This document shows, piece by piece, positions 280 to 19,079 of a stretch of DNA of 64,000 nt (positions are counted from its first letter, which is position 1; every line of letters starts with the position of its first letter). The notes under the pieces are model-generated. The model was given only the letters and a program-made list of their open reading frames with translations. It ran no database searches and was not told where the DNA came from. The DNA is taken from positions 1-64,000 of the forward strand of contig BK006949.2 in the NCBI GenBank assembly GCA_000146045.2, in the 5' to 3' direction. The position numbers and the translations under genes were made by a program. This DNA is from TPA_inf: Saccharomyces. Lineage: Eukaryota.

Positions 280-3200
280 TCACTCTCCAACTTCTCTGCT
301 CGAATCTCTACATAATAATATATCAAATCTACCGTCTGGAACATCATCGCTATCCAGCTCTTTGTGAACCGCTACCATCAGCATGTACAGCGGTACCCTC
401 GTGTTATCTGCAGCGAGAACTTCAACGTTTGCCAAATCAAGCCAATGTGGTAACAACCACACCTCCGAAATCTGCTCCAAAAGATATTCCAGTTTCTGCC
501 GAAATGTTTTATTGCAGAACAGCCCTATCAGCATCGACAGGAATGCCGTCCAATGCGGCACTTTAGATGGGGTAACTCCCAGCGCAAGCTGATCTCGCAA
601 GTGCATTCCTAGACTTAATTCATATCTGCTCCTCAACTGTCGATGATGCCTGCTAAACTGCAGCTTGACGTACTGCGGACCCTGCAGTCCAGCGCTCGTC
701 ATGGAACGCAAACGCTGAAAAACTCCAACTTTCTCGAGCGCTTCCACAAAGACCGTATCGTCTTTTGCCTCCCATTCTTCCCGGCACTTTTTTTCGTCCC
801 AGTTCAAAAAGTACTGCAGCACCTCTGTCTTCGATTCACGCAAGTTGCTCCATACTTTATAATACAACTCTTTGATCTGCCTTCCAGACATGCGGAAAAC
901 TTGGCTCCCTTGCTTGCCTCTTGTCGAATCCAATACACTAATTGTTTCTCTTCTTCTAGTAATGGCCAGGTACCAAGCATAATTTCTCTGTATCTGAGAG
1001 TAGATCTCTCCCCTTTTTACGCTAAAATATTTCAAATATCCTACAGGGTCCCCATGATATGGCTCGATGTCTTCCAAGTATTCTTTGTATTCCTCGTCAT
1101 TTCGCAGCATTCTCTCCACAGCTAGTGCTTCCCAAGCCATCCTCCGATACGATACTTTCTGGCCAGCCCAACAGACACAGAGCTCGAACATCTTTTGACA
1201 GCCCTTGCATAATCCGTATTGTGTGAATACTCCCTCTGGGCAGAAGTATACGTCAATACCATAGAGGAAAAGATGTTTAATTTCGTCAGACCGAAATCCA
1301 AGAAACTGTAAGACATTCATATTCTCGGAAGTATTGGGAAATTGTGCTTTCAGTTTCTTTCTCTCTAGCAAAACCATTTGACTCCCTTTCCGCTTATACG
1401 ACTCTTTGTTAATGTCGGTGACTGGATGGAATCTATTATCCTCAGCATTGCCATCTTTATTGGCGTCCTCCTTGGCACTAGCGTTGGTACTTTCAGTGGT
1501 AGTGGCATTAGTGCTGGAGTTGGTGCTAGCAGTGGTAGTGGCATTAGTGCTGGAGTTGGTGCTAGCAGTGGTAGTAGCACTAGTGTTGGAGTCGGTACTT
1601 TCGGTGGTAGTAGCACTAGTGTTGGAGTCGGTACTTTCGGTGGTAGTAGCACTAGTGTTGGAGTTGGTACTTTCAGTGGTAGTCGCACTAGTCCTGACGT
1701 TGATGCTGGCAGTGGTAGTAGCACTAGTCCTGACGTTGGTGCTGGCAGTGGTAGTAGCATTAGTGCTGGAGTTGGTACTTTCAGTGGTAGTCGCACTAGT
1801 CCTGACGTTGATGCTGGCAGTGGTAGTAGCACTAGTCCTGACGTTGGTGCTGGCAGTGGTAGTAGCATTAGTGCTGGAGTTGGTAGTCGCATTGGTACTG
1901 GCATTAGCACTACCATGAATGCACGTGTCGCTGTCCTCATCACTGCTGCAATACTTTCTGCACCTGTCACTGCTATTGCTCTCCTGGAAGCTAGACGGTA
2001 ACGCAACGATCGACATGGAAGCTGTCGCCTGTTTTTCAGCCAATCTGTCCATTCTTTCTATCAGTTCCACTGTGTCAGCAGACAGGTCTGTCCTGGAGCC
2101 ACAGCATCCAACATGCTGGCCCTTTTTTCCTTTCTTTGATTCAAGTCCATAGAACTCGCGTACCTGTTCGGTTATACAGCCTTCCTTAATCGGTGGTAAT
2201 TCACCCTTACGATTCCTTGCCGCCCAACTGTTTTTTCTAGATAATAGATAACAGAGGCCCCCATCTCTTAGTCTCCCTACGCCTTGAATGAGCTCAATAA
2301 TATTAAGTCTATTATCAAGCATGATCACCATCATCAATTGCTTAATGTCAATTCCTTCAGTCACTAATTTCGTTCCGATGAGAACTCGCATGCTACCGTC
2401 AGTGACAAACTCCTTTGTGCGAGACACCTTTTCTGCAGCACCCAGCTTCCCGTGTATCCATACCACCCTAAAATACTTTCTCCAAGAGCAGGCCAATTCT
2501 TCCACTTCGTTGGTTGTGCTTGCAACTACAATGGCCTTCGACTCTGGTTCAATTTCAAAGAGGGCTAAAAGAAGCTTCAGTGCTTCTTCGGGCTGTGATT
2601 CCACTTTCTTCCAAATTTTATGAACATGCCCTAAAGGCACCTCGGATTTCTCCTTGATTAGATTAAACATCCGTGTTGGATAGCTGGATAGACCTCTGCT
2701 GAGATCTTCCGACCGTTTGAGCTCGTTGATGTCCATCGACTTCTTGGCCAGTCCCGTAAGCCCAATACGCTGCAACGCAGCATCAGCTACAGCCTCAGGT
2801 GCTGTGCCGCTCAAAAAGATTGCTTTCTCAAAAGCGTCAAAATCAAGGTTAGTTATGCCCCCAAATTGCGACTGCCGGTAGACCTCCGTTTCAAAGTTGT
2901 GAAACTCATCTACAATGAGGTAACCCAATTTTACGTTGTTGGTCCTAAAGGTGCACTCAACAATATTCTCCCACGCAGCTATCCTGTCTGTGAAATTAGT
3001 GCTAGCAAGATCATCGTAGATCCCCACGTATAAATCAGTAACGCCATCGCAACCTTCTTCAATAAAGTTTCTTACAGGGGCCACATTCAAGCAACCGCAT
3101 CGGCTCAACCTGATCATGCAATTAGCAAGCAACACTGTGTACGGTACAAACAGAAACGACACATATTTCACGTCGCCCTTAGACGCCAGTGCTATCAAGG

Positions 3201-6007
3201 GGAGATGAAATAACTCCGTCTTACCATAGCCCGGTGGGGCCTGTACTGCCACAGAGGGTGTGTCTGCCATGTATATTTCATGACATAAGCGCAACTGATG
3301 CAAGTCCCTGAATTCAAAGGAGCTGCCAAAGAGTTTCTGGCCTGCGACGAGGATATCGTTTGTACTCTTGGGCTCTCGGGGCCTTTTTCGCGTTACTCTT
3401 GAAATTTTTTGATGATGATCTGAACTCGCCGCCTCACCTGCCACTACGTCTTCCGCATTCCGAGTACTAGAGAATGAACAATGGTAGTCGCTTTCAAGGC
3501 CTAACCATTGAATCCAGCGCTCGGAAGCTCGTTCCTGCAATAAAGTGGCGGTCGTCCCACTGACACTAGTTAACGAAAAGGAATCCACACCGTAAATATT
3601 TCGCCCTGTTTGAACGGAATGATTGGCCATGAGTTCACTCGTCGCCGACTCGTACAAATCTGTTTCAAATCTGCTACCTACGCAGTGCCGTCCTAGGGCA
3701 ATCAACCCCTGACGCATCTCCCGAAAATTCAGCTTCTGAGGTGCATTCTTCGGAAGTTCCCTCATGTACTGCCGAAAAGTTGCGTATTCAACCAGACAGC
3801 CCTTCGCGGTATTCAGAAACATGTAGGAATACAAAACTATCCTCGAAATGTCTCGATTTGTTACTTGATCTGGATCCTCAAATCCCACCACATCCATCCA
3901 AGGATCATGATTAAAAGCGTCATAACTGTTACCAAGCGCACATATTTGCATTTGCCTTAGCACAGTGACAAAATAAAACACGTAATCTGAAGTGAGTCCG
4001 TCAAGCGTCTTAAGTCGAGGCTCCGATGAACCGTTCTTGTTGTAATCAGTGTACAGTTGGATGCGTCTTGTTGTATCATCGACGTATACGTTGCGCTGAG
4101 GACCGGCAAAAGCGAGTAGCTGAAGCTCTGGATAACGGTAAGGGTATCCTACGGCAAAATGGATCATCCACATAAGTGGCACCGTAAGCTCGTCAATTGC
4201 AACAGTGACTTTATTTTTAAGAGCCGCGGTCATTTTGTTAGTATCTCTTCTCAACTTGGGCAGCACAATTTCACGATATTTAACAGGTATCATTTGAAGG
4301 AAAGAATCGTTCTCCAGATACTCGTCAATTCCTCGCTTTGGCTCTCTGAACAAAACTTCTCGATTACGCAAAATGAGGCTGGCAATATCAACCACTGTAG
4401 GCATATAAAAGCAGTCGTTCAATTCTTCCCAAAGGTTATCAAACTGAGCCTTGCATGCAAAGTAAAAGCCGCGGACATACTCGCGATTAAACAGTTTTCC
4501 ACATACTGATACACCATCAGAAGAAGGTACCAAAGTTATTCTATAAGAGTCCTTCAGCGCGGTTTCCTGCGCTACTTCGTGGTACAGAATTTTGATCCAT
4601 TTCCACATCGCAACGCCGTTGTTGTCATCAAATATATCTAAATCCCTTGCGGTACAAGCACAAGACGACACCAATAAAGCTTTCACGGCATCTAGTGTTT
4701 TTCTGAGTCTTCGTGGAGTGTTAGGACTGCGCAACTTACATACTTTCAAGCCATGCTCGTCCACAGAGGGAATAATGGGTTCTTCATTCGTAATGGATCG
4801 ATCCTCTTCGTCACCAGCGCCACCACGGGGACCCGCCCCGAAATTGAGCGCACATGCTCGCAAGATAATATGCAAAATATCACCCAATCGGTCCTTTTTG
4901 TTCATCATATCGTTACATATCTGTGAAAAGTACTTTATCTCAGTGGGTTTACGTGGGCATAGATCACGCTTCAGCCGCTCTGTGTCGACTTTCTTTTCGC
5001 CAGGTAAACTTGCTTGGTATGCAGAAAAAATCGATAGCTCATCTACGTGTAGTAACAAAAACATGTAGGGTGCCAAATTGTATCCATATTTCCTTATGGT
5101 GCTTTTCTGAAGACCCCTTACAATAGGTGTGCCAGAAACAAAGTCAGTGAAAGTACGCATCGTAGAGCTGTCGTTCGGCCTGGCACTCGCTATTTCGTAA
5201 CAACGTTCCAGGACACGGAAACTCAACTCATTATAGTATCCTCTGTTGAGGTAAAAAAGAGAAAGGGTATCGTAATCCTTTCTATTGAATTTCAAAGTAT
5301 GCACTTGAAACAACGTGTAGACCATCAAGTTGATTTTCTTGGGAATAAGATACTTTGAAGGGATTGGTCCGCCCTGGAAATCTGGTTCGTCTTCAACAAA
5401 CGTCAGGAACTTTTGTACATTTTTCCCGACCATGACGGAAACGACAATTTTTTCAAAAGACCTTTTCCTATCCATTGCACCAGTTCTGAATTTTACCACT
5501 TTGATTAGACCAGACTTTTCGTCTTCGTAGAATGACCGCACTTCCGTGGGGATCGATTCAAATAAAGTTATTGAGGGACAATGTACCAAGTCGTTTTTGT
5601 TATTTAGAGCCGACTCAAACTCGTCAAAGTTTGCTTTTTCAAACTTACGCCTATCGGAAACTTTCATTTTATTTTTGTAAGTTTCGAAATTAACAATAGT
5701 ATGTTGATTGTTATGCTTTTTGACAAGAAATCCATCAATATAAACAAAAGATTGTCCAGTTTCCGTCTTATCATCATCTAAGAATGTAATAATTAAGCTA
5801 TTGAGAAGATGCAGAATCTGCGCTATGCAGGTGCAAATCTCTAGCAGCAGCAAAGTAAATTCAGTTAGTAAGAAATCTCACTAAGATAAGCGACTGTCTG
5901 TCCCCTTCAAGCACAACATAGAAAGCAGAAGGATGTCTCATTCATCGCTTGATTTCCGGCCTGCAAAAATAAAGTAGTCGGTACGTACGTTCGTTTTCAA
6001 TTTCCAT
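280..6007 (-). CDS. YRF1-7: Y'-encoded DNA helicase (YRF1 family), spliced: complement join(280..5840, 5989..6007), 1859 aa
   Basis: The 1857-aa track ORF has helicase motifs (APPGYGKTE Walker A, VDEFHNF box) and the YRF1 family sequence. Its apparent start is a TTG artefact. The real ATG is at 6007-6005; the 19-nt exon 1 ATGGAAATTGAAAACGAAC reads MEIENEQ and joins in frame to ICTCIAQ, the recognisable YRF1 N-terminus. Confidence 0.9.
1476..1912. repeat. About 12 copies of a 36-bp (12-codon) tandem repeat inside the YRF1 ORF, encoding a Ser/Thr/Asn/Ala-rich tract
   Basis: Direct repeats of agtggtagtagcactagtgttggagttggtactttc variants. The protein shows [26 protein letters not shown] repeated. 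Spurious ORFs open on the other frames and the opposite strand. Confidence 0.9.
5841..5988 (-). other. Spliceosomal intron of the YRF1 gene (148 nt)
   Basis: On the minus strand the 5' splice site GTACGT sits immediately after exon 1, the branchpoint TACTAAC is at 5870-5864, and the 3' TAG|AG acceptor at 5843-5841 restores the reading frame. Confidence 0.75.
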
Positions 6008-15404: not shown

Positions 15405-16868
15405 TCAACAATTTCTCCGACAACGCTGACAGCAGATGACCAAATCAAAAAGTCTGCATCCGTTTTTAAGGCCTGGTATGGGCTCACATATTGGTAGACA
15501 AAAGTTCAATGTGAGTGCTGTTGCATTGATGGCAATTGACTCATTAATATCACCATCGCTGTTCAGTATGTTACTAACAGATTTTAGTAATGGAGCAAAT
15601 TTAAGGACAAGCTCATCAAATGCTAACTGCCAATCCATACTTTGCGTGGCATCAAATCCGACTTCCAGCGCCTTTTCTAAGTCATCTACCATGTCCAATT
15701 GCTTTTCCCATGTCATTCCTTCATCGAGTAATCTTCTGTTGTTAGGATCAGGAGCAATGTACGTCCTGTTTATCCCGCTCACTAGGTACCTATAGTCGAT
15801 ATGGATTCGATGCTCCCCGTTGTCATGCGCTGCACCCGCTCTCAACTGATTGAAGCTTTTAACTGCGTTGAAATTAGAAAAAGCCTTCTCCCAACCATCT
15901 TCTCTTTCCAGAATCGCCTTTTGGTCATCTGTTAGCTGATCTTCAACTAGGCTTCCATTTTCATCCAGAGGCCAACCTTCTTCCTTCGATATTACGGTAG
16001 GTGCTGGTAAGCCTAGGTACTGGTTAGGCTGGACCATTTCTAACATTGAAACAAGTTCGACGTTATCAGCCGAAAAATCACACAAAACGACCTCAAAGCC
16101 AACCTCTACCCTGATAATTCCGTCAAGCCCGAATGGCTTCCCCCATTTGCATATTCTAGCAGCGTAGAGTCGTTCGGCCATTCGTTCGTTTTCACCATCA
16201 TCTGTAAGGTTCAATTTCTCTTTAATAACATTTGACAACATTAGCTGCGTGTCCATCTCTCCTGAGTCAGTTTTCGCAGCAGAAGCCCCATCAAGATAGA
16301 GAAATTTGTTGAGGTCCCGTGCTGCTCTATAAGTAAGCATTTTTTGTGAACCCCGACCTTTTTCGTCTGGTGGTGGTGGTGGTGGTGGTGGCCCTTTTGG
16401 ATGATCACCGTTGGTGCCATTGCCGAACCTCCCATGCCTTCTTTCCAAAGATTTTCTCCCATAGGATGGTGACCTCAAGCCGAAAGAGTAGCTGAATTCA
16501 TGGTCCATAGCTAGCCATTCGAAGGTAGTTGGCACTTTTGATCCGGCATGGTACATTAAAGTTCCTTTGGGAATTACAGCGGGAAAATAAGATACTCCGA
16601 CAGGATGTATATCCGATGGAGACTGTCTTAAAGCAGCCCGAATGGAATTAAAGATAGCCGTACTGTTATCAAAATCAATGTCTCTGACGAACTCATGGTA
16701 ATTATCCCATCGTATAGAAGGTAAGTCTGTGCTTTTAATTGCAGATTGATTGTGTGGTAGGGCAGTTGATACTATGCCGTAAGATCCAGATAACTTCCAA
16801 CAGAAACCAAGCAGTACAATGAGTAGTACGCCTATGATGGCTGAGATACCTTGACGATGGAATCGCAT
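15405..16868 (-). CDS. N-terminal 487-aa fragment of a YOR389W-type secreted/membrane protein of unknown function, ending at the frameshift
   Basis: N-terminal signal/TM segment, then a poly-Pro run (8 P) encoded by (CCA)8. The ORF stops at 15405 while the next reading frame continues the protein, giving YPL277C-like coordinates. Confidence 0.8.
   Translation of the reverse strand: MRFHRQGISAIIGVLLIVLLGFCWKLSGSYGIVSTALPHNQSAIKSTDLPSIRWDNYHEFVRDIDFDNSTAIFNSIRAALRQSPSDIHPVGVSYFPAVIPKGTLMYHAGSKVPTTFEWLAMDHEFSYSFGLRSPSYGRKSLERRHGRFGNGTNGDHPKGPPPPPPPPDEKGRGSQKMLTYRAARDLNKFLYLDGASAAKTDSGEMDTQLMLSNVIKEKLNLTDDGENERMAERLYAARICKWGKPFGLDGIIRVEVGFEVVLCDFSADNVELVSMLEMVQPNQYLGLPAPTVISKEEGWPLDENGSLVEDQLTDDQKAILEREDGWEKAFSNFNAVKSFNQLRAGAAHDNGEHRIHIDYRYLVSGINRTYIAPDPNNRRLLDEGMTWEKQLDMVDDLEKALEVGFDATQSMDWQLAFDELVLKFAPLLKSVSNILNSDGDINESIAINATALTLNFCLPICEPIPGLKNGCRLFDLVICCQRCRRNC
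16366..16389. repeat. (TGG)8 trinucleotide microsatellite encoding Pro8 in YPL277C
   Basis: tggtggtggtggtggtggtggtgg at 16366..16389. The opposite frame reads HHHHHHH. Confidence 0.9.
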
Positions 16869-17947: not shown

Positions 17948-18385
17948 ATGTCGAAGGGAAAGGTTTTGCTGGTTCTTTATGAAGGTGGTAAGCATGCTGA
18001 AGAGCAGGAAAAGTTATTGGGGTGTATTGAAAATGAACTTGGTATCAGAAATTTCATTGAAGAACAGGGATACGAGTTGGTTACTACCATTGACAAGGAC
18101 CCTGAGCCAACCTCAACGGTAGACAGGGAGTTGAAAGACGCTGAAATTGTCATTACTACGCCCTTTTTCCCCGCCTACATCTCGAGAAACAGGATTGCAG
18201 AAGCTCCTAACCTGAAGCTCTGTGTAACCGCTGGCGTCGGTTCAGACCATGTCGATTTAGAAGCTGCAAATGAACGGAAAATCACGGTCACCGAAGTTAC
18301 TGGTTCTAACGTCGTTTCTGTCGCAGAGCACGTTATGGCCACAATTTTGGTTTTGATAAGAAACTATAATGGTGGTCATCAATAA
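17948..18385 (+). CDS. FDH N-terminal fragment (145 aa, YPL276W-type)
   Basis: The protein [36 protein letters not shown]...NYNGGHQ then stops. Confidence 0.8.
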
Positions 18386-19079
18386 GCAATTAATGGTGAG
18401 TGGGATATTGCCGGCGTGGCTAAAAAATGAGTATGATCTGGAAGACAAAATAATTTCAACGGTAGGTGCCGGTAGAATTGGATATAGGGTTCTGGAAAGA
18501 TTGGTCGCATTTAATCCGAAGAAGTTACTGTACTACGACTACCAGGAACTACCTGCGGAAGCAATCAATAGATTGAACGAGGCCAGCAAGCTTTTCAATG
18601 GCAGAGGTGATATTGTTCAGAGAGTAGAGAAATTGGAGGATATGGTTGCTCAGTCAGATGTTGTTACCATCAACTGTCCATTGCACAAGGACTCAAGGGG
18701 TTTATTCAATAAAAAGCTTATTTCCCACATGAAAGATGGTGCATACTTGGTGAATACCGCTAGAGGTGCTATTTGTGTCGCAGAAGATGTTGCCGAGGCA
18801 GTCAAGTCTGGTAAATTGGCTGGCTATGGTGGTGATGTCTGGGATAAGCAACCAGCACCAAAAGACCATCCCTGGAGGACTATGGACAATAAGGACCACG
18901 TGGGAAACGCAATGACTGTTCATATCAGTGGCACATCTCTGCATGCTCAAAAGAGGTACGCTCAGGGAGTAAAGAACATCCTAAATAGTTACTTTTCCAA
19001 AAAGTTTGATTACCGTCCACAGGATATTATTGTGCAGAATGGTTCTTATGCCACCAGAGCTTATGGACAGAAGAAATAA
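18369..19079 (+). CDS. FDH C-terminal fragment (236 aa, YPL275W-type)
   Basis: After about 17 out-of-frame residues the protein matches the FDH C-terminus (NAD-binding GAGRIGYRV ... [11 protein letters not shown]). Confidence 0.8.

Follow-up and report, generated by a model that had tools for sequence, protein, structure and literature searches.

The region at positions 17948 to 19079 (forward strand) of the window, that is, of the whole stretch of 64,000 nt that was analysed, is with a probability of about 0.96 the S288C allele of FDH2, the subtelomeric paralog of FDH1, and in this allele it is best read as a decaying pseudogene. FDH1 and FDH2 belong to the NAD+-dependent formate dehydrogenases (FDH; EC 1.17.1.9), in the D-isomer-specific 2-hydroxyacid dehydrogenase superfamily. 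The window itself is of the type of the left subtelomere of chromosome XVI in Saccharomyces cerevisiae S288C. Judged from its sequence, the gene is an FDH by descent that does not code for a complete FDH.

Results

Two fragment ORFs in place of one gene

The complete pseudogene allele is 1132 nt long, compared with 1131 nt for the intact coding sequence (CDS). A single uninterrupted ORF of ~376 codons with both FDH domains is absent, since codon 146 is TAA and the frame shifts by +1 at codons 159/160. The 5' fragment ORF (YPL276W; 17948 to 18385, forward strand) starts at the ATG at 17948 and comprises 145 codons plus TAA. It covers only part of the catalytic domain, and PF00389 (catalytic) is its only Pfam domain. 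When its frame is read past the TAA, 14 more residues follow, and then a TGA. The 3' fragment ORF (YPL275W, 'truncated FDH2'; 18369 to 19079, forward strand) comprises 236 codons in the +1 frame and contains PF02826 (NAD-binding). Its codons 1-18 are an out-of-frame overlap, and it follows FDH, to the normal C-terminus, only from KNEYDLEDK onward, because an A6 run replaces A5; the initial annotation had likewise let the downstream ORF match FDH only from KNEYDLE. In an intact allele (protein P0002), PF00389 and PF02826 lie in one chain. According to SGD, there are strains in which YPL275W and YPL276W are joined in a single continuous ORF. Public databases contain both window products without any difference, the one of 145 aa as 'Putative uncharacterized protein YPL276W, putative pseudogene' and the one of 236 aa as 'Truncated formate dehydrogenase 2, strain ATCC 204508/S288c, putative pseudogene'.

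The gene adjoining FDH2 upstream, of the YPL277C type (15405 to 16868, reverse strand, 487 aa), is a second disrupted gene. Compared with the intact gene of 625 aa (L003, L005, L007), it has a 62-bp deletion around 15501, and the S288C annotation therefore shows two ORFs (487 aa and about 100 aa). A 1857-codon ORF at the far left of the window (280 to 5853, reverse strand) is consistent with a helicase-type ORF of a subtelomeric Y' element. The 64,000-nt window yielded no tRNA genes.

Two truncating lesions and a third derived change

The stop at 18383 to 18385 (forward strand) results from C>T at 18383, which turns Gln146 (CAA) into TAA; the C is kept in intact FDH2, in FDH1 and in S. paradoxus, so that the replacement of a Gln codon by TAA proposed in the initial annotation is confirmed. 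The second lesion, at a spacing of 39 bp, is one inserted A in the homopolymer at 18422 to 18427 (forward strand; local context gct aaaaaa tgag), which causes a +1 frameshift at codons Lys159/Asn160. It had been described as a +1 A insertion in an A6 run. The extra A is indeed at this site, but the run was A5 before the insertion turned it into A6. A third derived change, which was not among the lesions listed earlier, is G>C at 18942 (forward strand). It replaces Asp332 with His in HISGTSL(D>H)AQ and is absent from intact alleles. Asp332 is invariant, being present in 34 of the 34 yeast FDH homologs inspected, down to about 72% identity, and it lies five residues after the His of HISGT, which is presumably the catalytic His.

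Depending on which truncating lesion is present, translation ends after 145 or 160 residues, in both cases short of the Rossmann NAD-binding domain and of the catalytic Arg and His. Either lesion alone would thus be expected to disable the enzyme, as had been claimed. From the truncation, together with the literature cited below, we infer that FDH2 has probably lost its function in S288C.

When the window gene was repaired in silico, with a Gln codon in place of TAA and with one A taken out, it gave a protein identical to S288C Fdh1 (NP_015033.1) at 374 of 376 residues. The only two differences are at position 146, where the window has the stop, and at position 332, where it has His and Fdh1 has Asp. 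At the nucleotide level, the window gene differs by exactly 3 nt (18383 C>T, the extra A and 18942 G>C) from the FDH1 coding sequences L039 and L042, which encode the S288C Fdh1 protein.

The lesions recur in independent assemblies

Homopolymer indels are a common class of error, and spurious one-base indels at 18859, 18948, 18964, 18979 and 18998 do occur in the long-read assemblies L001, L002, L009 and L010. It could therefore be asked whether one or both lesions are themselves sequencing or assembly errors, such as a miscall of the A run, in a gene that is intact in the real strain. We give this reading next to no credence. T at 18383 together with A6 is found in independent Illumina k141 metagenome contigs, in Logan short-read contigs, in long-read assemblies and in NCBI genomes, and both lesion sites lie inside one 141-mer and are therefore directly read-linked. 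The exact 145-aa product is present in 974 index blocks and on 685 contigs, and the exact 236-aa product on 30, where contig counts per product (685, 30 and 77) are not to be equated with allele frequencies, because gene callers vary the start of the 3' fragment (228, 236 or 198 aa) and the sampling is biased. Since T and A6 recur across many independent short-read and long-read assemblies, the explanation by homopolymer error was rejected, and the concern that the initial annotation had raised on this point is settled.

The indels in L001, L002, L009 and L010 are singletons, mostly in short homopolymers, and they look like assembly errors. In these assemblies the 3' ORF is fragmented into calls of 166-198 aa.

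Intact and disabled alleles coexist

A total of 45 loci were fetched by exact-product look-up and their DNA was compared, which gives a non-random sample of alleles; the S. paradoxus sequence is diverged, and its sites were scored by alignment. Six haplotypes, with the same centromere-side flank, were found at the three sites in S. cerevisiae (given here in the order 18383, A run, 18942). C/A5/G is the intact state, seen in L011-L014 and in the FDH1 loci L039-L042. The frameshift alone, C/A6/G, occurs in L015-L024 (160-aa product, 98 index blocks) and is combined with His332 as C/A6/C in L034 and L038. Both truncating lesions are present as T/A6/G in L001-L005, L007, L009, L010 and L028, while all three changes, T/A6/C, are found in the window, L029-L033 and L035-L037. 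The nonsense codon alone, T/A5/G, was seen on one contig (L008).

Intact FDH2 (L011, L012), FDH1 (L013, L039-L042) and S. paradoxus (L025-L027) all keep C, A5 and G, and C>T, the A insertion and G>C are therefore derived. The comparison with FDH1, other strains and S. paradoxus thus puts both truncating lesions where the initial annotation had them. Apart from the window, the C at 18942 was seen in no loci but those that the exact 236-aa product had brought up (L029-L038), and every other scorable locus of S. cerevisiae and S. paradoxus has G. The intact FDH2 alleles of 376 aa lie at the same chromosome XVI-type locus (L011, L012). A second FDH had been predicted for strains in which both lesions are absent. 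These intact alleles suggest that this is so, as does the report on CEN.PK113-7D (PMC5812937).

The survey also bears on whether a functional enzyme might still be made in S288C, either by readthrough of the TAA combined with a +1 slip on A6, of the ribosome or in transcription, or by non-covalent assembly of the 145-aa and 236-aa fragments. The promoter and the remaining CDS are almost untouched (3 nt versus FDH1), slippage is conceivable on the A-rich run, and a microarray signal has been reported for YPL276W/FDH2, one that at about 99.7% identity is indistinguishable from FDH1. We nevertheless hold such an outcome to be extremely improbable. Recoding needs two separate events, and the lesions, which are derived and polymorphic and each of which also occurs without the other, show the pattern of mutation, unlike that of a conserved signal for recoding. 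The ORFs of S. paradoxus and other species are plain. In yeast, the readthrough consensus after the stop is CAR-NBA. The context after this stop, GCA ATT, does not match it. For assembly from fragments, residues 146-158 would be missing and the 3' ORF is without a promoter of its own. In addition, the third change alters an invariant Asp, and the literature calls FDH2 truncated. Readings by recoding or by a split enzyme were rejected on the ground that the lesions are derived and polymorphic.

Order and independence of the lesions

Each truncating lesion also occurs without the other, frameshift-only alleles being common and the nonsense-only allele being seen once (L008). Since T without A6 and A6 without T both exist, the two lesions are separate events, in agreement with the initial annotation. 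As to their order, A6 is carried by all disabled alleles but one (L008), and alleles with the frameshift alone match the window backbone in all else, down to the synonymous T at 18827. On these grounds, and as read from a non-random sample of alleles whose loci came from exact-product look-up, the most parsimonious order is likely to be the A insertion before C>T.

The opposite order, in which the nonsense change came first, the A insertion second, and the frameshift-only alleles arose by later gene conversion of the stop by FDH1, seems improbable to us. A T/A5 allele does exist (L008), and exchange between FDH1 and FDH2 is clear from the alleles at the 'wrong' locus in L014 and L021. However, this history has to contend with an A6 that is common to every disabled allele but one, and with frameshift-only alleles that are frequent (98 index blocks) and otherwise match the window backbone. 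Furthermore, L008 is itself on the pseudogene backbone, with T at 18827, for which a back-slip from A6 to A5 is a simple explanation. L008 is thus best read as such a back-slip on a dead backbone, although it could instead be a relic of a history in which the nonsense change came first.

The G>C change at 18942 is found on both T/A6 and C/A6 backgrounds (L034, L038), and therefore points to recombination among dead alleles. Taking the insertion-first order, we suggest that an A was inserted into the A5 run, probably by replication slippage, and that the nonsense change and Asp332His would have come afterwards, when the gene was dead and free of constraint. Recombination or gene conversion, both among alleles and with FDH1, might then have shuffled these changes. 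The outcome would be that S288C depends on FDH1 alone.

Further lesions and exchange between subtelomeres

Other disabled forms of the gene were seen in the survey. L043 and L044 (1501-1620, equivalent to window position 17950) have an independent lesion, in which the start codon ATG is changed to ATA; their annotations invent an intron from an upstream ATG and arrive at models of 384/385 aa (P0003-P0007). In L006 (GCA_030036135.2), homology to FDH2 ends ~750 nt into the gene (at about window position 18700), with unrelated sequence beyond, so that the allele is either rearranged or truncated. One product, P0028, has a 31-aa internal deletion.

A frameshift-only allele of the FDH2 type is found with the flank of the FDH1 locus (chromosome XV-R, Vel1p side) in R008 (L021, CM002418.1) and in a metagenome contig (L024), and an FDH1-type allele lies on chromosome XVI in L014. 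These alleles at the 'wrong' locus imply ectopic exchange between the two subtelomeres. FDH2 appears from these sequences to be a repeatedly disabled and exchange-prone subtelomeric duplicate. With derived lesions, coexisting intact alleles and further lesions all found, it may be described as a segregating pseudogene.

It is possible, if somewhat doubtful, that this goes further. FDH2 would then have been knocked out repeatedly and independently (by the A insertion, Q146*, start loss, internal deletion and truncation), and a dead allele would have been copied onto the FDH1 locus of chromosome XV (R008 L021; L024). Some natural or wine strains may accordingly be without any FDH, and the loss might be favored and not merely tolerated.

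Discussion

The broken FDH2 of S288C is already known, and its presence is textbook annotation, not a discovery. A previous study has reported that CEN.PK113-7D has FDH1 and FDH2, and that in BY4741 only FDH1 is intact and FDH2 is truncated (PMC5812937). In line with this, a 2023 preprint states that 'S288c has FDH1 and truncated FDH2' (bioRxiv 10.1101/2023.07.10.548313). A search of the literature for YPL276W together with a frameshift found nothing specific. What is added here is the exact map of the lesions, the third change, and a haplotype series that suggests stepwise decay. In the work of Overkamp et al., an fdh1 fdh2 double deletion is said to abolish activity in CEN.PK. We presume that this work (Overkamp et al. 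2002, Yeast 19:509) is the source that PMC5812937 cites for the difference between the strains.

The importance of these results is practical, not conceptual. For the engineering of formate, methanol and C1 assimilation, S288C/BY offers one FDH gene, whereas CEN.PK and many other strains offer two. With a difference of no more than 3 nt between the coding sequences, expression measured for YPL275W/YPL276W on arrays or by short reads is largely inseparable from that of FDH1. Moreover, the haplotype series is a small and tidy case of stepwise pseudogene decay (an insertion followed by a nonsense and then a missense change, with recombinants as well) and of allele shuffling in a subtelomeric duplicate.

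Comparison with known FDH genes and enzymes

The closest known system is the annotated FDH2 of S288C (YPL275W and YPL276W in UniProt), which both window products match residue for residue, with no difference. Its neighbors are also the same in the window, with the YPL277C-type gene upstream and a centromere-side flank as in other chromosome XVI assemblies. The intact FDH2 of other strains (P0002 in L011 and L012) shares its locus and flanks with the window gene, but it has C at 18383, A5 and G at 18942, and it differs further by Phe>Leu (18705 T>C) and by a synonymous C at 18827. At the protein level, P0002 and the repaired window protein differ at two residues (Leu254 and Asp332).

FDH1 (YOR388C), in contrast, has its own continuous ORF of 376 codons, with CAA146, the A5 run and Asp332, and it lies at a different locus, with a gene of the Vel1p family on its downstream side. 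The two genes share their upstream region and ~500 bp past the stop, as parts of a duplication between the subtelomeres of chromosomes XV-R and XVI-L; the duplicated block reaches from the telomeric side across the whole gene and ends about 500 bp beyond the stop.

Outside Saccharomyces, the intact allele P0002 aligns over residues 1-375 with solved FDH structures (E 3e-173 to 1e-149). The closest of these, the NAD-dependent FDHs of Candida boidinii and other yeasts (5dn9, 2fss, 8j3o), give full-length alignments (E 1e-150 to 1e-173), in which the GAGRIG NAD motif and the HxSGT motif of the catalytic His are conserved. These three, however, are intact enzymes, whereas the CDS of the window breaks off after residue 145.
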